Virus record (IMG/VR): IMGVR_UViG_2548876954_000009
Direction: 5' to 3' (one strand)
From: a virus
Lineage: Duplodnaviria; Heunggongvirae; Uroviricota; Caudoviricetes
Length of the DNA stretch: 43,895 bases
The notes under the pieces are model-generated. The model saw nothing but the letters and a program-made list of their open reading frames with translations, was not told the origin of the DNA and made no database searches. The first letter of the stretch is position 1, and each line of letters begins with the position of its first letter. The position numbers were made by a program, and so were the translations under genes. This document shows, in pieces, positions 26,835 to 38,744 of this stretch.

Positions 26835-27115
26835 GATATTGTGGTGCTTTTTGTGGGAGTCATCCACTTACGCACTTTGTTTTTCTATACCAGCAGTTAG
26901 CTTCTGCTGTAAAACTATTCATGCAGCAAACCTGCACTTCACCACGATGGTTAGCATACTTTTCCTGATTAAGATCTTGCCAAATATGCTTGCCATTATT
27001 TCATGCATTGAACATCCTTACTTTTTATTAAAGATATCCAATATTCGCCACTCTGTCTGTATCTCCACTCAGGCATCAGCCTTCTTCGTTATCGTATACA
27101 GACGAGCTATGAATT

Positions 27116-27331
27116 TTAATCAGTAATAATGACATTTGCTGCTGCAGGACCTTTAGCACCACTCTCTATAGAGAAGATAACCTTTTGACCTTCAAATAAG
27201 GTTCGATAATTATCATTCTGAATTGCAGAAAAATGCACAAACACATCTTTACTACCATCAACAGGAGAAATAAAGCCAAAACCTTTATCAGCGTTAAACC
27301 ATTTTACTAAACCAGTCATTTTATTTGACAT
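27116..27331 (-). CDS. cspB: Cold shock protein, CspB/CspI-like
   Basis: [23 protein letters not shown]... with RNP motifs; 71 aa. Confidence 0.9.
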
Positions 27332-27631
27332 TCTACATTCCTTAACTTGAGCCTTTCGGCATAAATGATTTGTATAACAGAAACGACTTCGTACTTAATT
27401 GGAGAGACTCAAAGAAGGAATAAGTGAATAACACCTGAAATGAGAACTGCTTTAGTAAACTACTTCGTATATCGTCTGTTCTTCAAACCGACGCAATCAT
27501 TAACGCATAGTTGAACATATGAAGCAATGTTTATTTTAGACATCCAGCCATCTTCAACCCCATCAAAAAACTATAGCTTTCTTCAGGAAGGTGTGTATAG
27601 TGCGCCCAGTTATCAGTATTAAGGAATTTTT

Positions 27632-28130: not shown

Positions 28131-28158
28131 AAGCACAAAAACCCGCTCATCAGCGGGT
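28131..28158 (-). terminator. Putative tR' terminator of the Q-dependent late transcript
   Basis: Stem ACCCGC/GCGGGT, 6-nt loop, T-tract on minus strand, about 50 nt downstream of predicted PR' start. Confidence 0.55.
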
Positions 28159-28206
28159 TTTCTACTTTTTCTTAACGTCGGGTATACAAAGCCCATCGTT
28201 GAAAAA

Positions 28207-28266: not shown

Positions 28267-29019
28267 TTATCTCGTCACTTTTCTTAATTGCACCTCAGCA
28301 TATGCTTCTTCCTGCCAGCACTTTGTAACCAGTTTATCAATGACATCTGCATATCCTTTGTACCACTGATAATCCGTCAGGTCTGGTACCAGCTTCTTGA
28401 CATGAAGCCGCGCCAGTGTGGTTGGTAAACGGCTAAACCGGTTTCCATTGCAACGCCCACAAATCTTATAAACAGGCGTGCCATGAAGCCGGGTTCTTTT
28501 TTCATCCAGGACAATACCTTTACCCTTACACCCTCTGCACGCTGTGCTGACTTCTCCCTTACCATGACAATACTGACATAGTTCCTTCACCCACTCTTCC
28601 TTGATAACAGACTCCCCGCTTCTGGAGTGTTTCACCACTTCGCGCAATACATTATGAAATCCAGTACCAGAACAACGCTCACAGCGAGCCTTACTTGCCG
28701 CAGACCTGGAATAATCAGCAAAGGCAAAATTCACAAGGTAAGGAATGATCTGTAGCCGGGTTTCTTCACTCAATTTATTCAATGTCGGGTTATCCAGTGC
28801 CATCGCGTAATTGAGCAGACCTTCAATCGCAAACTGAGGATCCTGAACACCAACTTTTGCCAGGAATAAGGCAAACCCAAGCGGTGCTTTCGACTGCACC
28901 ATCCCCTGCGCAGCCATTACATCCGTAATTGTTAAACCACCAGAGCCTGTCGCCGGTGCGTCATCGCTCAATTTTGGAGATTTTGGGGAGTAATATTTTG
29001 GTAAGGCTTCAAGGTTCAT
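28267..29019 (-). CDS. Q: Late gene antiterminator Q (QuuQ-like)
   Basis: 250 aa with multiple CxxC zinc-finger pairs (CERCSGTG, CQYCHGKG, CRGCKGKG, CGRCNGNR); upstream of lysis cassette. Confidence 0.8.
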   Translation of the reverse strand: MNLEALPKYYSPKSPKLSDDAPATGSGGLTITDVMAAQGMVQSKAPLGFALFLAKVGVQDPQFAIEGLLNYAMALDNPTLNKLSEETRLQIIPYLVNFAFADYSRSAASKARCERCSGTGFHNVLREVVKHSRSGESVIKEEWVKELCQYCHGKGEVSTACRGCKGKGIVLDEKRTRLHGTPVYKICGRCNGNRFSRLPTTLARLHVKKLVPDLTDYQWYKGYADVIDKLVTKCWQEEAYAEVQLRKVTR

Positions 29020-29032
29020 GCTCGTTCTCCAC

Positions 29033-30028
29033 TTACGCCAGTACGCCTATTGCCAGCGCACGATCGATAAAACGAAATATCAGCTCCAGCTGGGAGCCAT
29101 ACTTCTCTTCAAATGCCACGGTATCCGCATGCAGCTCGTCGTGATGCTTTCTGCACAAAGGCAACACAAAGAGGTCATGCGCTTTTGTACCCATTCCACC
29201 CTGACCGTGACCTATCAGGTGGTGGGGATCATCAGCAGGCTTTCCACAACATGCACACGGCTGTGTCTTAACCCAGCGTGTGTACTTTTCATTAACCCAG
29301 CGGCGACGTTTTGGGCGTAACATAAAAGACTCCGGCGACTCCGGATCCACTTTCAGCGCCAGCACCTTTTTTGCCTTATCCTGGATGATGCTGGTGGCAG
29401 GAACCGAAGGCACAAGGTCACTTTCCCGGGTGACAGACGGCACAACAGGCTTTGGTAATCTCAGTGCTTTACGGGCTGCACTTTCCGGTAAGGCATCCGC
29501 CAGGTCATTACGAATCAGCCACCAGCACAGTTCCGGCATTGTCACAACGTGACTATCATCAAAACCGAGATCCCGACGCACAACAGACAACACCCAGCGG
29601 GCACAGTTATCCGTTGCCATTGATTCCAGCCGTTCCGTGAACTGATCGCGCAGCTGGTTATCACAGTGCCAGCACAGACGGATTGCGCCCGGAGCGTGTC
29701 GCATTGTGGTCATGTTCTCGCTGTGCCAGTCGGAATGAGGCCACTGGCAGCCTTTTTCACGAAGTAACCAGCTTTCAAGACATTCCACGCCACCAGCACG
29801 ACGGATCACTGCCTCATTGCGGAACACGGCCCGAACAGCAGGATCATCCGCCAGCGGTTGTGATGCCGCGGGAACGGCACCACTGGCGAAAGATGAATAA
29901 CGTTCCGGCTCAGGCTCCAGCAGTACACGCCCCTGCATAAACAGGGGCATCAGCTCTGAACCAGGTCTGAACAATACGATCCCCATACGCGGGGCAATTT
30001 CAGGGGTCAGTAGTGCTCTCACGGTCAC
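29033..30028 (-). CDS. DUF968/YdfU-like protein (Cys/His-rich C-terminus); GTG start or internal ATG at 29986
   Basis: C-terminal ...CACCGKPADDPHHLIGHGQGG...LCRKHHDELH; position upstream of Q as in Qin. Confidence 0.6.
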   Translation of the reverse strand: MTVRALLTPEIAPRMGIVLFRPGSELMPLFMQGRVLLEPEPERYSSFASGAVPAASQPLADDPAVRAVFRNEAVIRRAGGVECLESWLLREKGCQWPHSDWHSENMTTMRHAPGAIRLCWHCDNQLRDQFTERLESMATDNCARWVLSVVRRDLGFDDSHVVTMPELCWWLIRNDLADALPESAARKALRLPKPVVPSVTRESDLVPSVPATSIIQDKAKKVLALKVDPESPESFMLRPKRRRWVNEKYTRWVKTQPCACCGKPADDPHHLIGHGQGGMGTKAHDLFVLPLCRKHHDELHADTVAFEEKYGSQLELIFRFIDRALAIGVLA

Positions 30029-30029
30029 C

Positions 30030-30845
30030 TCAATGAACGGTATCGAGCAGCTTTAACAGCTCAGGGAATCGGGATTCGAAGAAATGCGGCTGCGTCTCGC
30101 GCGGATTTGCAGGACTGGTGATGTTCTTGCCGAACATGCAGCCTTTCGCGGTCAGCGACCAGAATTTTTTGATGTTGTTAATCGCGGTACGACTGTATCG
30201 TTCGCGTTGTTCAACGATCCCCAGCTTCGCCATCTGGTGATATGCCTGATTAGCCGTCAGGCGGATACCATACTGCTTCAGCAGTGCACTCAGCGACAGC
30301 GTAGGGCGGCTTGAACCATCTGGCGCATCAGCAGGTGCATCAATGGCATAGATCGGCATAAGTTCAGGAAGACCAGCTACCTTTGATAATTTCTGGTATG
30401 CACCAAGTTTCGAGGAGTTTGACAGATTTAGAGTCTTTGCTGCTGATTCAAGCAGAATGACCCCGGATTTAATTTTGTCGGATGTGGTTTCTTCTGGTGA
30501 TGAATTATGAAGCGCATCAAAAGTACGTATCACTTTTAAGCTGAATGCCGGGCTGATCCACATTGCATATGCATAGACCAGCTCTTTACAGACATACGTC
30601 CCACCATTGCGCCCCTGAATGGTGATGACAGGAATACTACGGGAATCTCCCGTAGTTTCTTCTTCCAATAATTCCACAAGAGCCTTCGTTTCAGGACGAC
30701 GCATAAACTCGTGAACTTCCAGCGAACGGGAGGAGCGATTCTCACCAGCGGCAAGAAGAGCAGCTTTCTGAAGGTCGTTAAGACAGTAGTTAGATTCGAA
30801 GTACTGGCGCACAGAAACGCCATCAATTACAAGCAACTGATTCAT
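30030..30845 (-). CDS. KilA-N domain protein
   Basis: N-terminal KilA-N/APSES-like signature (...GRNGGTYVCKELVYAYAMWISPAF...); ATG 30845 with GGAGA RBS. Confidence 0.65.
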   Translation of the reverse strand: MNQLLVIDGVSVRQYFESNYCLNDLQKAALLAAGENRSSRSLEVHEFMRRPETKALVELLEEETTGDSRSIPVITIQGRNGGTYVCKELVYAYAMWISPAFSLKVIRTFDALHNSSPEETTSDKIKSGVILLESAAKTLNLSNSSKLGAYQKLSKVAGLPELMPIYAIDAPADAPDGSSRPTLSLSALLKQYGIRLTANQAYHQMAKLGIVEQRERYSRTAINNIKKFWSLTAKGCMFGKNITSPANPRETQPHFFESRFPELLKLLDTVH

Positions 30846-30942
30846 TGGTTTCTCCACAAATTTTTATCCACGAGCGGGACTGCACTCCCTTTTCGTTGAT
30901 GCCGGATGAACTTACTGCGATTTTTAATAGTTATCAAGGATA

Positions 30943-30962
30943 CACTGTTCATAAATACAGTA
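30943..30962. promoter_or_regulatory. Near-consensus LexA/SOS box (CTGT-N8-ACAG) upstream of kilA-N/DUF968/Q operon
   Basis: cACTGTtcATAaATACAGTA, 16/20 match to TACTGTATATATATACAGTA with invariant CTGT and ACAG intact. Confidence 0.55.
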
Positions 30963-31007
30963 TCTTTAACGAGGTAATACCCAAATTTAGGGTGTTGCTC
31001 AATTCCG

Positions 31008-31403
31008 TTACCGAGTTGCTAATTTGCAACTCGCTTTTTCGTACTTACTGATAGTGATCTCGACCTTCCCCTCCGGGATAACCGGTCCCCACTCCACCAG
31101 CATTCTTTTCACCTGACTGTCGTCTTCCCACACACCCGCGTGGGTCAGGGCGTCAAACAGCGCCTTGTTATAGTTGTCCAGATCGCGGATCCGGTTATCC
31201 GGAGGAAACAACACGATCTCCACTGAAGCAGGTGCCGACGTTGGTTTCGGCAGACGACGTAACTGCTCAACTATTGCTGCACACGCCGCGCTCTGGAATT
31301 TTCGCCCCGCCGCGCTTATCAGGCTCTTACCAGCAAACGCCCCTTTGTTGGGGTGTCGCCAGTACGTGTTCACGCTGGGCGGAAAAGGCAGAATCAGCTT
31401 CAT
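31008..31403 (-). CDS. rusA: Holliday junction resolvase RusA
   Basis: 131 aa, ...RIRDLDNYNKALFDALTHAGVWEDDSQV... RusA signature. Confidence 0.9.
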   Translation of the reverse strand: MKLILPFPPSVNTYWRHPNKGAFAGKSLISAAGRKFQSAACAAIVEQLRRLPKPTSAPASVEIVLFPPDNRIRDLDNYNKALFDALTHAGVWEDDSQVKRMLVEWGPVIPEGKVEITISKYEKASCKLATR

Positions 31404-31726
31404 ACTTTCAGGCCTCTCTCATGTAACCAATGGGCTGCACGCAGCCTGGCGTTTTCCTCACCGGCAAGCAGTGAGCGGATAATCCCGACCGCCTCGCTGT
31501 CGTCGTCCTTCACCACGGTATGAAGCGTGATCCCCCGGGCCACACCACGCTTTATCGTGATGACGCCTTTTTTCTCCAGTGCGCGAAGATGCTCCACCGC
31601 TGCATTCACTGAACGGTATCCCAGCATGATTGCCACCTCCTGATTGGTTGGCGGGAAGCCACGTTCTTTCTGATAAGAAATCAGCATATCCAGCACCTGC
31701 TGCTGGCATTGAGTTAACGTCGTCAT
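31400..31726 (-). CDS. LexA N-terminal DNA-binding domain homologue lacking the S24 autocleavage domain
   Basis: QQQVLDMLISYQKERGFPPTNQEVAIMLGYRSVNAAVEHLRALEKKGVI..RGVARGITL aligns with LexA residues about 5-70 including recognition-helix S-x-N-A-A; only 108 aa. Confidence 0.75.
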   Translation of the reverse strand: MTTLTQCQQQVLDMLISYQKERGFPPTNQEVAIMLGYRSVNAAVEHLRALEKKGVITIKRGVARGITLHTVVKDDDSEAVGIIRSLLAGEENARLRAAHWLHERGLKV

Positions 31727-32376
31727 GCCGCCATCTCCCTGACCAGTTTTTCCGCCTGCTGGCGAACCTGCGCCAGAAACGCCTCACCACATGCCTCAAG
31801 TTCATCGCGCCCGATGTAGCTGATTGCCGGTCCCTTCCAGGTCTTGTCGAAAACAGCAATAGCACCAGCGAAGAAAGCGCCTGTCGGCACCTGCTTCTCA
31901 TCTTTCGGGATAAACCAGGCAGGCAGTTCAAAACCAATACGCCCGCGAATAAAAGCAATATGATCTGCATCTTCCGGCCACCACACTTCGCTGGTGGCAG
32001 CTTTGATCAGGAAAACATAGCGCCCGCCTTTATCACGCATGGCACTGGCATGCTTCATGATGTAACGCATGCCGGTGATGTATTGCCCCTCATGCTGACT
32101 GGCGCGGCTGTATGGGGGATTACCAAAGGCAGCACCTTTAAGCTCCGCAAGACGTTCTGACCAGTCATGCGCCAGCGCGTTGTCTTCCGCCGTGTAATAC
32201 GCGGCACATTTGGTGTTATCACCGTCAGTGAACAGATCCAGAACAAACGGGCCAAACAGGGTGTTAATTCCCCAGAAAATGTTGTCCGGCGTGCGCCACT
32301 GATCGCCCACTTCCTTCAGTTCATGGGCTGGTTTGTTCCGCAGTTCCACCAGCGCCTGGCAATATTTATTACTCAT
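31723..32376 (-). CDS. Phage DNA N6-adenine methyltransferase (orphan Dam-type)
   Basis: NPPY motif (FGNPPYSRA); ATG 32376 overlaps upstream stop (TAATG). Confidence 0.8.
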   Translation of the reverse strand: MSNKYCQALVELRNKPAHELKEVGDQWRTPDNIFWGINTLFGPFVLDLFTDGDNTKCAAYYTAEDNALAHDWSERLAELKGAAFGNPPYSRASQHEGQYITGMRYIMKHASAMRDKGGRYVFLIKAATSEVWWPEDADHIAFIRGRIGFELPAWFIPKDEKQVPTGAFFAGAIAVFDKTWKGPAISYIGRDELEACGEAFLAQVRQQAEKLVREMAA

Positions 32377-32864
32377 TAAGCCCCCACGTAATTCCCTGAC
32401 AGATACCACTCTTCACCCGATGCAGCGCGCTTGCTGCTTTTCCGTAAGCACCGCTCACGACGCGCCAGAAAATTGTTTCGTTCTGGCTGGGAGTGGCTTT
32501 CACGGAATGCCGCCATCCACACCGTTGCAGCACGACGGTATAAGCCCCTGGACTCCAGTTCTTCAGCCTGGCGGGTCAGGCACAAAATCTCCCGCGGGTC
32601 GTTAGTGCCGACATAGAAATTGCGCACAGGTCTGGTTTCACGAACTGGTTGCGGTTCCGCCTCCTGCGCTCTCTCAGTCAGGCGCGGGAAATGTCTGCGT
32701 GTATCCCCTTCACAACGGTGAGCCACACGACCACTCTGACGTAACTTGCTTGCTGACTGCAGAACGCGCTGCCGTGAGTAACCTGCAAAAGCATCCGCAA
32801 TGTCTCCGGAAGTACACCCCGGATGGGCTTCAATGTATTTCTGAACTTCATTCAAAAGACTCAT
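32376..32864 (-). CDS. Putative PerC-like transcriptional regulator
   Basis: C-terminal ...AEELESRGLYRRAATVWMAAF... resembles PerC family; ATG at 32864. Confidence 0.35.
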   Translation of the reverse strand: MSLLNEVQKYIEAHPGCTSGDIADAFAGYSRQRVLQSASKLRQSGRVAHRCEGDTRRHFPRLTERAQEAEPQPVRETRPVRNFYVGTNDPREILCLTRQAEELESRGLYRRAATVWMAAFRESHSQPERNNFLARRERCLRKSSKRAASGEEWYLSGNYVGA

Positions 32865-33685: not shown

Positions 33686-33918
33686 GCTGCACCTCCGAGA
33701 TGCTTCATGTTTTTTCCGGAGCAAAAGGCTATAAGCGGCATACTGATGCGGTAATTACGGCCCAGCGGTTCACAAATCACCTTCTGACATTCACGGTCAA
33801 CCAGGCTAACACGTAGAACATGCCCTGCAGGCGTGGTGTACCACTGCCCAACTGTAGGAATTGATGTTTTTTTACGCTTAAGCAAACGGCAAATATTGAG
33901 GATCAACGGATTAAGCAT
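33682..33918 (-). CDS. Small basic hypothetical protein, translationally coupled to replication gene
   Basis: 78 aa; GGAGGG RBS; stop overlaps downstream ATG (ATGA). Confidence 0.4.
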   Translation of the reverse strand: MLNPLILNICRLLKRKKTSIPTVGQWYTTPAGHVLRVSLVDRECQKVICEPLGRNYRISMPLIAFCSGKNMKHLGGAA

Positions 33919-34747
33919 GACGATGCCCTCCGCGGATATTCAGGAGACGGTGAATATGAAAATTAGCCTTATCCGCCAGACGAATACGTTCAGCTTGCAA
34001 GTTAAGAAGGGTTTCTACCAGAACCTGATGCGCCTGCGGATCCGAAAGAGTTACCTTGCGCAGAGCACGTAGTGCAGTCGTTACATAACTGAGTTTATGT
34101 AAGTCTTCATCATTCAGACGAGTGAGGGCTGGGACAGTAGCCATGATGGCAGCCTCCTTGATCGGTGAAATACTTCCACCACCGGAAACGCCAATTTCGC
34201 TGGTGGTGAACTGAACGGGGTTGGCGTAACCGGTGATCAAGGAAACCGGCGCATCTTTCGATGCCCCCGCCCAGCCCACCATAACTTTGATGTGAGCAAA
34301 TGCGGACGATAAAAAAGACGCTGGCGCGTCATATATCGCCTTGATCAATTCCAGGACGCCAATCCCGGCACCCGCTTTATAAGGTGCCTGAACAGTGTAA
34401 CGTCCCGGAATGGCAGAATCAATGTGCTGGTGGTCCTTCACACTCAACAAAATCACGCCTGAATTTCCACAAAGGACTAAAGCACTCATGCGGGTAGTCT
34501 TTGCGAAGATAGATAACGCGCTGTGTTTCTGGCTCCCAACGAATAACATGAACATAAAGTCCTCTTCCGTCACGAAACCAGCGGTTAAGTTCCTGCACAA
34601 CTCGCCCCCCACAGTCAGGTAAAGTTCTCTGTGGTTACTTACAGCCAGGTGATTTGGTAATCTGCATTCATGCCGTAACAACAGGTGTTCAGCGACGCTG
34701 ACCACCAGCTGTTGCGACAAACGGTTATTTGCCGTTAAACTGTTCAT
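33911..34747 (-). CDS. Hypothetical protein (278 aa) in early-right operon
   Basis: ATG overlaps upstream stop (ATGA); no recognisable motif, no Walker A. Confidence 0.4.
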   Translation of the reverse strand: MNSLTANNRLSQQLVVSVAEHLLLRHECRLPNHLAVSNHRELYLTVGGELCRNLTAGFVTEEDFMFMLFVGSQKHSALSIFAKTTRMSALVLCGNSGVILLSVKDHQHIDSAIPGRYTVQAPYKAGAGIGVLELIKAIYDAPASFLSSAFAHIKVMVGWAGASKDAPVSLITGYANPVQFTTSEIGVSGGGSISPIKEAAIMATVPALTRLNDEDLHKLSYVTTALRALRKVTLSDPQAHQVLVETLLNLQAERIRLADKANFHIHRLLNIRGGHRHA

Positions 34748-35629: not shown

Positions 35630-36304
35630 ATGAAAACAATCCATGACATCCGGCGGTCTAACGCCAGAAAACTGAGAGATGGTGTTGGCGGGAATTCTTC
35701 CTTTGCCACTATGATTGATCGCGAGCCAACCCAGACCAGCAGGTTTATGGGAGATGGTGCTACTAAAAATATCGGTGACAGCATGGCACGACACATCGAA
35801 AAATGTTTCGACCTGCCTGTCGGATGGCTCGATCAAGAACACCAGACAACGAACATCACAAAAAAACCTGATGTTTCAATCACTAATAAACAAATCACAT
35901 TAGTCCCTGTCATATCATGGGTACAGGCCGGAGCATGGAAAGAAGTTGGATATTCTGAGGTTGATTTGAGCACAGCAGAAACGTATCCCTGCCCTGTACC
36001 CTGTGGGGAAATGACTTATATCTTGCGGGTGATAGGTGATTCAATGATTGATGAGTACCGCCCGGGAGACATGATTTTTGTCGATCCTGAAGTACCTGCC
36101 TGCCACGGTGACGACGTTATTGCATTGATGCACGATACAGGTGAAACCACCTTCAAAAGGTTGATAGAAGATGGGACACAGCGTTATCTCAAAGCGTTAA
36201 ACCCAAACTGGCCTGAGCCTTACATTAAGATCAACGGTAATTGCTCTATAATTGGAACTGTGATTTTCTCAGGAAAACCAAGAAGATACAAAATCAAAGC
36301 CTAA
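35630..36304 (+). CDS. cI: CI-type repressor (N-terminal HTH, C-terminal S24 LexA-like peptidase)
   Basis: 224 aa; C-terminal ...VIGDSMIDEYRPGDMIFVDPE... S24 signature with catalytic Ser and downstream Lys (FKRL); divergent from cro. Confidence 0.9.
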   Translation: MKTIHDIRRSNARKLRDGVGGNSSFATMIDREPTQTSRFMGDGATKNIGDSMARHIEKCFDLPVGWLDQEHQTTNITKKPDVSITNKQITLVPVISWVQAGAWKEVGYSEVDLSTAETYPCPVPCGEMTYILRVIGDSMIDEYRPGDMIFVDPEVPACHGDDVIALMHDTGETTFKRLIEDGTQRYLKALNPNWPEPYIKINGNCSIIGTVIFSGKPRRYKIKA

Positions 36305-37919: not shown

Positions 37920-38744
37920 ATGTCTCAGAACTTAGACGCAACCGCAATTAATCAAATCCATGCCCTTATTTCTGCTCAGGGTGTTAATGAAATTATCAGT
38001 AAGATTGGTGCCGACGCAGTGGCATTACCTGAAAATTTCCGCATTCATGATCTGGAAAAATTTAATTTAAATCGCTTCCGTTTCCGTGGTGCGCTTTCCA
38101 CTGCCAGCATCGATGACTTTACCCGTTATTCTAAAGATCTTGCAGATGAAGGCACCCGCTGCTTTATCGATGCCGATAATATGCGAGCCGTCAGTGTGCT
38201 TAACCTAGGCACTATTGATGAACCTGGTCATGCAGATAACACCGCCACTCTCAAACTGAAAAAGACAGCACCGTTCTCTGCTCTGTTGTCTGTTAATGGC
38301 GAGCGTAACTCCCAGAAGTCACTGGCAGAATGGATTGAAGACTGGGCCGACTACCTTGTAGGCTTTGATGCTAATGGTGACGCTATTCAGGCAACAAAAG
38401 CGGCTGCGGCTGTCCGTAAAATCACGATTGAAGCAAACCAGACCGCTGATTTTGAAGATAATGACTTCAGCGGAAAACGCTCCCTGATGGAGTCTGTCGA
38501 AGCGAAGACCAAAGATATTATGCCAGTGGCATTTGAATTTAAATGCGTTCCGTTTGAAGGTCTGAAAGAACGTCCGTTTAAATTACGCCTCAGCATTATC
38601 ACTGGCGATCGTCCTGTACTGGTTCTGCGCATTATTCAGTTGGAAGCAGTCCAGGAAGAAATGGCTAACGAATTTCGTGATCTGCTTGTTGAGAAATTCA
38701 AAGACAGCAAAGTAGAAACCTTTATTGGTACTTTCACCGCCTGA
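37920..38744 (+). CDS. YfdQ-like protein (DUF2303)
   Basis: 274 aa, [20 protein letters not shown]...; same length as recalled YfdQ. Confidence 0.65.

Follow-up and report, generated by a model that had tools for sequence, protein, structure and literature searches.

A credible LexA operator in a mosaic segment upstream of the kilA-N/DUF968/Q operon of a lambdoid Escherichia coli prophage

Can DNA damage reach an operon ending in a late-gene antiterminator through the host repressor LexA, without passing through the CI-type repressor of the prophage itself? The question is raised by a 43,895-nt stretch of DNA (IMG/VR virus record IMGVR_UViG_2548876954_000009; the whole stretch is called the window here, and positions count from its first letter), in which a lambdoid Escherichia coli prophage carries a palindrome resembling a LexA binding site, or SOS box, upstream of the genes kilA-N, DUF968 and Q. 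An original prediction made from these letters had noted the box together with a nearby gene for a truncated LexA, and had proposed that the two amount to a second SOS-linked checkpoint on late-gene expression or to a decoy titrating host LexA sites. On balance, the evidence collected here favors a lineage-specific LexA operator which, with an adjacent promoter, would put kilA-N and DUF968, and probably Q, under direct SOS control. The features on which this reading depends are as follows.

30943-30962, palindrome without direction: SOS (LexA) box, CACTGTTCATAAATACAGTA
30909-30937, minus strand: best predicted sigma-70 promoter toward kilA-N, TTGATA (30937-30932), 17 bp, TAAGTT (30914-30909)
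30030-30845, minus strand: kilA-N, 271 amino acids (aa) from the ATG at 30845; a GTG at 30857 is also open
29033-30028, minus strand: DUF968, a YdfU-type His-Me (HNH) nuclease-like gene (Pfam DUF968, E 3.5e-81; HNHc_6; PHROG 96)
28267-29019, minus strand: antiterminator Q of the Qin/YdfT type (Pfam Antiterm, E 7.7e-54), starting 13 nt past DUF968
31008-31403, minus strand: rusA, with its stop at 31008 and its last ~9 codons inside the mosaic segment
~30560-31035: mosaic segment of ~470 bp, carrying hairpins, the box, the promoter and a variant kilA-N N-terminal domain

The E. coli SOS box is defined by a 16-bp core, CTGT-N8-ACAG, inside a 20-bp palindrome, TACTG(TA)5CAGTA. The sequence CACTGTTCATAAATACAGTA has this core with both half-sites perfect, agrees with the consensus TACTGTATATATATACAGTA at 16 of 20 positions, and has an AT-rich center, as do the SOS boxes of the E. 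coli chromosome. It is non-coding, lying within the 162 bp that separate rusA from kilA-N, 98-117 nt 5′ of the kilA-N ATG. The 20-mer was scored against a LexA weight matrix with a heterology-index-style score (Berg-von Hippel/Lewis formula), in which lower values are better matches; the matrix was compiled from 24 E. coli SOS boxes and is not the published Lewis/Fernandez de Henestrosa matrix, and its values are not directly comparable with published ones. The box scored 5.08, within the range of the 24 training boxes (0.9-13.4, each left out in turn), 10 of which scored better. The base composition of the window gives a chance expectation, both strands counted, of 0.002 sites with a score of 5.08 or better. 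Three matches to CTGT-N8-ACAG occur in the 43.9-kb window, and the other two are inside open reading frames (ORFs). Scanning the window for further boxes gave a runner-up of only 10.2, at 42049-42068, within a DUF4365 ORF (41381-42400, plus strand) beside the integrase gene; this candidate was rejected as an SOS box on account of its position inside an ORF and the ~0.4 such sites expected by chance. Given its score, its rank in the window and the 0.002 expectation, the site at 30943-30962 is not a chance match. The strong match originally reported is thus upheld, and the 20-mer is a credible operator that host LexA would be expected to bind.

The strongest comparative argument for SOS control comes from other kilA-N loci (L-numbers are the locus labels of this comparison). 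LexA-like palindromes recur 5′ of kilA-N homologues that are 50-59% identical, in unrelated upstream sequence, and several of them overlap promoter-like elements.

L071: AACTGGTTACATAAACAGTA, score 4.7, overlapping the -35 of GTTACA-17-TATAGT
L057 and L061: close variants of the L071 box, overlapping the -35 of GTTACA-17-TATAGT
L072: GATTGTATATTTATACAGTC, overlapping the -10 of TTGCCC-17-TATATT
L040: TGCTGGATAAATATTCAGAT, overlapping TGGATA-17-TATGTT
Providencia phage PSTCR8lys: GACTGTATGTTAATCCAGTG, score 6.7, 71 nt 5′ of the start codon
L058/L056: ACCTGTACGTT(A/G)ATCCAGTG, scores 9.5 and 12.2, 71 nt 5′ of the start codon

Per 200-nt upstream region, chance alone would give about 0.002 sites with a score of 10.2 or better. 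Set against this expectation, the recurrence suggests that SOS control of kilA-N/DUF968 arose repeatedly.

Comparison with related phages indicated how the box came to lie in this prophage. Homology to phages SfV, mEp460, SfII and cdtI and to Stx2c phages ends at ~31033, in the last rusA codons, and resumes at about residue 95 of KilA-N. The best reading of this pattern is that the box is lineage-specific and lies inside a mosaic insertion in the nin region. Of 5426 complete E. coli genomes, 186 have the box-bearing segment, O104:H4, O111:H8 and O157:H7 strains among them; it is also present in phages SfIV, which has the same box, and PhiR49_1 and in ~35 IMG/VR contigs. In SfIV and in O104:H4 the segment is 99.3-99.5% identical to that of the window. 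The CTGT/ACAG core is invariant in the ~40 related copies, in which the sole box variants are C1 to T, a change toward the consensus (score 3.9), and T14 to C. Conservation alone is nevertheless weak evidence for function, as 2 of the 20 box columns vary, like the rest of the gap.

In a promoter scan with a looser position weight matrix, built on general promoter base frequencies, the minus-strand candidate at 30909-30937 scored 10.7 compared with a background 90th percentile of 8.8, and was the best in the gap. The start predicted from this candidate is near 30902; the box would then span about -60 to -41, its end 5 bp away from the -35 hexamer. The start of DUF968 overlaps the stop of kilA-N, and DUF968 accompanies kilA-N in all related loci. 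Because of this overlap, the 13-nt distance from DUF968 to Q and the lack of a convincing minus-strand terminator between the box and Q, transcription from the candidate promoter is expected to reach Q. An SOS input into the kilA-N/DUF968/Q operon is likely, and Q is probably included in the SOS-controlled unit. The gene order agrees with the original prediction: on the minus strand come Dam methylase, truncated LexA and RusA, then the gap that holds the box, and then KilA-N, DUF968 and Q. A near-identical order with the same annotation is present in E. coli 2013C-4974 (NCBI). Of the proposed checkpoint on late genes, then, the credible operator and a possible SOS input into Q stand, while the pairing of the box with a LexA paralogue, taken up below, does not.

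In a lysogen, LexA would hold the kilA-N promoter shut. After DNA damage, RecA-stimulated cleavage of LexA would allow kilA-N transcription to start with no need for inactivation of CI; the translationally coupled kilA-N and DUF968 would be expressed, and Q would probably follow by read-through. SOS control would in this way add to read-through from the CI-controlled early operon. KilA-N has an N-terminal (APSES-like) DNA-binding domain, the only fold recognized in the protein, and its C-terminal two-thirds match no annotated domain.

Several observations weigh against this reading. The main weakness is the position of the box, which adjoins the predicted core promoter and does not overlap it, an unusual arrangement for repression by LexA; the E. 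coli SOS boxes of recA, sulA, dinI, uvrB and other genes share the CTGT-N8-ACAG palindrome, whereas the box described here lies 5′ of the predicted -35 and not across the core promoter. A stricter promoter scan of the gap, moreover, returned no promoter. Six loci in which KilA-N is 72-80% identical (from Citrobacter, Kluyvera, a Cedecea-like sample, Pantoea, Leclercia and Kosakonia) have no box, and yet they keep the order methylase, truncated lexA (in five of the six), RusA, gap, KilA-N, DUF968, Q. In the sister phages SfV, mEp460 and Stx2c, rusA runs directly into kilA-N, with no box there either; only 19 bp separate rusA from the kilA-N homologue in SfV. The box-less genera and the SfV-type phages indicate that SOS control is dispensable for the operon. 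If SOS drove Q in a lysogen that was not induced, the cell would be at risk of lysing before any phage was made, an argument that something limits read-through. Since the resident repressor has an S24 domain, an antirepressor would not be needed in cis. Finally, no binding or expression data for the site turned up in the searchable literature.

LexA-controlled accessory operons are already known in prophages, and in that setting a LexA box is an ordinary kind of finding. In the Gifsy prophages, dinI and an antirepressor gene are driven from a LexA box that lies 1.3 kb past the replication genes and follows a terminator-like palindrome, and Fels-1 combines a cleavable CI-type repressor with an antirepressor gene induced by DNA damage (PMC3121763). 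As in Gifsy-1, -2 and -3 and Fels-1 (Lemire et al. 2011), the present box would be one for host LexA with its own, here predicted, promoter, downstream of the replication genes and outside the immunity region; it lies in the nin region, ~4.7 kb from the cI-like gene, whose S24-domain product is presumably cleavable. A terminator-like palindrome precedes the box in Gifsy and here, where it has no T-run in the sense direction. The operons differ in content, in that the present one encodes a 271-aa KilA-N protein and a nuclease-like DUF968 protein in place of DinI and a small antirepressor, and runs on into Q. The antirepressor genes tum of coliphage 186 and antC of phage N15 are repressed by LexA, as summarized in PMC3121763, and share with kilA-N the direct (here predicted) control of a phage gene by host LexA; they belong to other phage families and lie elsewhere in the genome. 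With KilA of phage P1, a member of the KilA-N family (Pfam PF04383), the N-terminal domain is held in common at 37% identity (tblastn), while the C-terminal two-thirds are unrelated to annotated domains. One record annotates P1 kilA as non-essential, another as a putative host-killing protein. The gene is controlled by C1 and is not known to be under LexA.

Nothing relevant on KilA-N or DUF968 in connection with a LexA or SOS box was found in the searchable literature, nor any description of this arrangement. If the proposed control is real, DNA damage reaches an operon ending in Q by a route that bypasses the CI repressor. This would apply to some prophages of E. coli and Shigella, among them ones in O104:H4, O111 and O157 strains and the serotype-converting phage SfIV. 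The view of induction thresholds and of lysis timing would change for these prophages, and the uncharacterized but very common KilA-N/DUF968 pair would acquire an SOS-induced role.

The first alternative concerns the other side of the box, where a structured stretch faces away from kilA-N.

30973-31040, plus strand: structured stretch comprising a 10-bp hairpin (30973-30999), a terminator-like hairpin (31012-31033) and then CTTTTTC

This stretch could be an RNA of ~80 nt, divergent from kilA-N and antisense to the 3′ end of rusA. The box might then control, alone or together with the kilA-N promoter, a plus-strand small RNA of ~80-110 nt ending at the terminator-like hairpin 31012-31033 with CTTTTTC. 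Such an RNA would be regulated by SOS and antisense both to the end of rusA and to transcripts reading through into kilA-N/Q. The fold of 30963-31042 on the plus strand has a z of -5.2. The hairpin at 30973-30999 contains three G.U pairs and can therefore form on the plus strand only, and the second hairpin with its T-run is likewise a terminator on that strand only. Natural variants preserve plus-strand pairing, since they turn C into U or A into G where the partner is G or U, all of the elements fall within the mosaic segment, and L072 also has an antisense-facing terminator just 5′ of its box. On the other hand, the plus-strand promoter candidates are weak, the best scoring 7.95 and 6.3 and so falling below the background 90th percentile of 8.8; the variants amount to 3-4 substitutions; the other box-bearing homologues have no such terminator; and Rfam gave no match on 30700-31200, either at gathering thresholds or at E values up to 10. 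Such a small RNA is unlikely on this evidence, and it could coexist with LexA control of the kilA-N promoter.

A second alternative replaces host LexA, as the protein acting at the box, with the truncated LexA encoded upstream of rusA.

31400-31726, minus strand: gene for a LexA DNA-binding domain alone, 108 aa, overlapping the Dam gene at its start and rusA at its stop
31723-32409, minus strand: phage Dam methylase

The 108-aa protein had been described as a LexA N-terminal domain without the autocleavage domain, and this description proved accurate. Pfam LexA_DNA_bind matches over its full length (1-65/65, E 9.8e-19), the protein is 43% identical to residues 1-86 of E. coli LexA, and the solved structures that it matches are LexA entries only (1lea, 3jso; E 1e-15). 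In an AlphaFold model (mean pLDDT, the model's own confidence score, 78), the part that superposes on 1lea and 3jso, at 1.1-1.3 A, consists of three helices and a wing of two strands, so that its fold is not an unrelated one; a floppy linker and helices at residues 75-87 and 93-103 come after it. The tail of ~38 residues holding these two helices is conserved even in family members that are 44-49% identical. No Peptidase_S24 match was found, and the protein ends at residue 108, without the domain that holds Ser119 and Lys156; its TIGR00498 score is 69 bits compared with a cut-off of 111, in a match that reaches residue 91. The lack of S24 and the sub-cut-off score mark it as a truncated paralogue rather than a LexA. 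At residues 85-89 (31460-31474), LLAGE aligns with the LexA sequence VAAGE that holds the Ala84-Gly85 self-cleavage site, and the gene looks like a lexA truncated just past the cleavage region. DNA contacts in LexA are reported for Ser39, Asn41, Ala42, Glu44 and Glu45 (PMC13416735). The 108-aa protein keeps four of these five (Ser39, Asn41, Ala42 and Glu45), with Val in place of Glu44; across the truncated-LexA family Ser39 and Asn41 are invariant and Glu45 varies in distant members. The family is large, with 2527 and 782 sequences in two clusters, and extends over Escherichia, Citrobacter, Salmonella and Hafnia; NCBI names the 108-aa product 'LexA family transcriptional regulator'. Since the gene overlaps its neighbors at both ends, its product is probably made with the early operon.

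SfV, mEp460, cdtI, SfII and loci of five further genera have the truncated lexA gene in this position, all without the kilA-N box. Conversely, the box-bearing loci L029, L040, L057, L058, L061, L071 and L072 and phage PSTCR8lys have no truncated lexA in the 1.5-2.5 kb upstream that was examined. Each occurs without the other in the co-occurrence tables; a dedicated pairing was rejected on this basis, and the idea of an uncleavable paralogue paired with this particular box is unsupported. From its distribution, the 108-aa gene is best regarded as a separate, widespread early gene, coupled in translation to the Dam gene and rusA and independent of the box.

All five of the complete phages with a truncated lexA that were scanned nevertheless carry at least one strong SOS box somewhere.

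SfV (34170-34189), mEp460 (41021) and cdtI (44083): TACTGTAAAAATAAACAGTG, spanning codons 3-9 of a gene for a DNA methyltransferase that lies after Q and before the lysis genes
mEp460: strong boxes in the methylase gene, two at dinI and one in the cI linker
cdtI: strong boxes at dinI and in the methylase gene
SfIV: strong box, the kilA-N box
SfII, 29167-29186: near-perfect box TACTGTTTTTATATACAGTA, score 0.64, inside a CI-like repressor gene
mEp460, 31970-31989: near-perfect box TACTGTTTTTACATACAGTA, score 2.4, the one inside its CI-like repressor gene

The cI boxes of SfII and mEp460 fall in the linker between the helix-turn-helix and S24 domains. The site TACTGTAAAAATAAACAGTG could be a second place of LexA action on the late region in SfV, mEp460 and cdtI. 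In phage lambda, which has no truncated lexA gene, the best site scores 9.1 (TACTGGATCTATCAACAGGA, 38660-38679, in the short gap between cII and O), and this weak site may be a chance match. The five phages share ancestry, so their boxes are only a hint of a general link between truncated LexA and SOS boxes.

The alternative built on these observations is that the truncated LexA itself binds the kilA-N box once host LexA has been cleaved, and either re-represses the promoter or activates it, so timing kilA-N/Q expression. The activating version has a precedent in phage GIL01, whose gp6, a truncated LexA, binds over the -35 and activates the late promoter P3 (Fornelos et al. 2018, PMC6182141). 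Both gp6 and the 108-aa protein are essentially the LexA winged-helix domain, and the late functions of GIL01 are tied to LexA boxes; GIL01, however, is a tectivirus of a Gram-positive host (Bacillus) without a CI-type repressor, and the extension of gp6 is 14 residues long, in contrast to the ~38-residue two-helix tail of a protein encoded in a lambdoid early operon. The retained contact residues and the LexA-like fold, a conserved tail that could provide dimerization, the box adjoining a predicted -35, and the strong boxes in all five phages are consistent with such a role. The independent occurrence of gene and box, and the loss of Glu45 in distant family members, argue against it. The isolated LexA N-terminal domain, furthermore, is known to bind DNA weakly. 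Overall, action of the truncated LexA at this box is quite unlikely. A broader version is that the protein is an uncleavable stand-in for LexA, supplied by the induced early operon, which would refill SOS boxes after the loss of host LexA, with phage boxes such as this one switched, by repression again or by activation like that of gp6, and the host SOS regulon shut down in the induced cell as the outcome; by analogy this is conceivable, and it is similarly doubtful. The truncated LexA is of interest in either case, being very common (in thousands of enterobacterial prophages) while its sole studied analogue is in a Bacillus tectivirus.

With host LexA retained as the expected ligand, there remains the question of whether the palindrome has any regulatory role. 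That it is a chance match or a relic might be argued from the lack of a box in most relatives of the operon, from the right half of the box (ATGAACAGTG), which is already present in the Kluyvera and Kosakonia loci, and from the two variable columns of 20, a variability no lower than that of the rest of the gap. The 0.002 sites expected per window, the invariant core and the recurrence of boxes at homologous positions in unrelated sequence contexts make this very improbable. The decoy role, for which there is nothing beyond the existence of a good site, was rejected on stoichiometry and can be dismissed as implausible, with one site per prophage copy and no second strong box in the window to set against the ~1300 molecules of LexA in a cell, a figure cited in PMC6590174.

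Downstream of the candidate promoter, the leader of kilA-N contains a further conserved element.

30870-30896, minus strand: leader hairpin ACGA-AAA-GGGA-GUGCAG-UCCC-GC-UCGU, ~20 nt 5′ of the kilA-N Shine-Dalgarno sequence

This hairpin has an inner stem GGGA/UCCC, an outer stem ACGA/UCGU and the conserved loop N-UGCAG. The loop is kept, with wholly different stems, in SfV-type phages, Klebsiella phage Kp4866-6, Salmonella phage 118970_sal3, many IMG/VR loci and six other genera. The stems covary among loci from at least eight genera (Escherichia, Salmonella, Klebsiella, Citrobacter, Kluyvera, Leclercia, Pantoea and Kosakonia), and the loci with the hairpin include L001/L090 (SfV), L087, L089 and L096-L101. 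In 17 distinct sequences, picked as TGCAG occurrences 5′ of kilA-N and so subject to some selection bias, 84.7% of stem cells were paired compared with 52.7% in shuffles, and the covariation score was 0.784 compared with 0.208, a value reached in none of 500 shuffles. The hairpin occurs with or without an SOS box and has no Rfam match. Other N-TGCAG hairpins, as might be expected of a nut-like element, were sought in the window, and the one before kilA-N was the only one in a regulatory position.

The rest of the region has the order of a lambdoid E. coli prophage, with its early-right genes on the minus strand.

35630-36304, plus strand: cI-like repressor with an S24 domain
Early-right genes, minus strand, in order: cro/cII-like, C4/isrK RNA region, replication gene, PerC-like gene, Dam methylase, 108-aa ORF, rusA
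Early-right genes, continued after rusA, minus strand, in order: 162-bp gap, kilA-N, DUF968, Q

Within the ORF at 33911-34747, the segment 34199-34387 (minus strand) matches the Rfam families C4 antisense RNA (82 bits) and isrK (64 bits) and overlaps an Ash-family ORF; the C4/isrK stretch resembles an antisense-RNA immunity module of the P1/Gifsy type and lies between the cII-like and replication genes. At the other end of the region, ~100 nt 3′ of Q, a perfect 10-bp hairpin between an A-run and a T-run (AAAACCCGCTCATCAGCGGGTTTT, 28138-28161) is probably a terminator overridden by Q. Beyond this hairpin are cold-shock genes like those of Qin, with a match to the cspA thermoregulator at 27074-27492.

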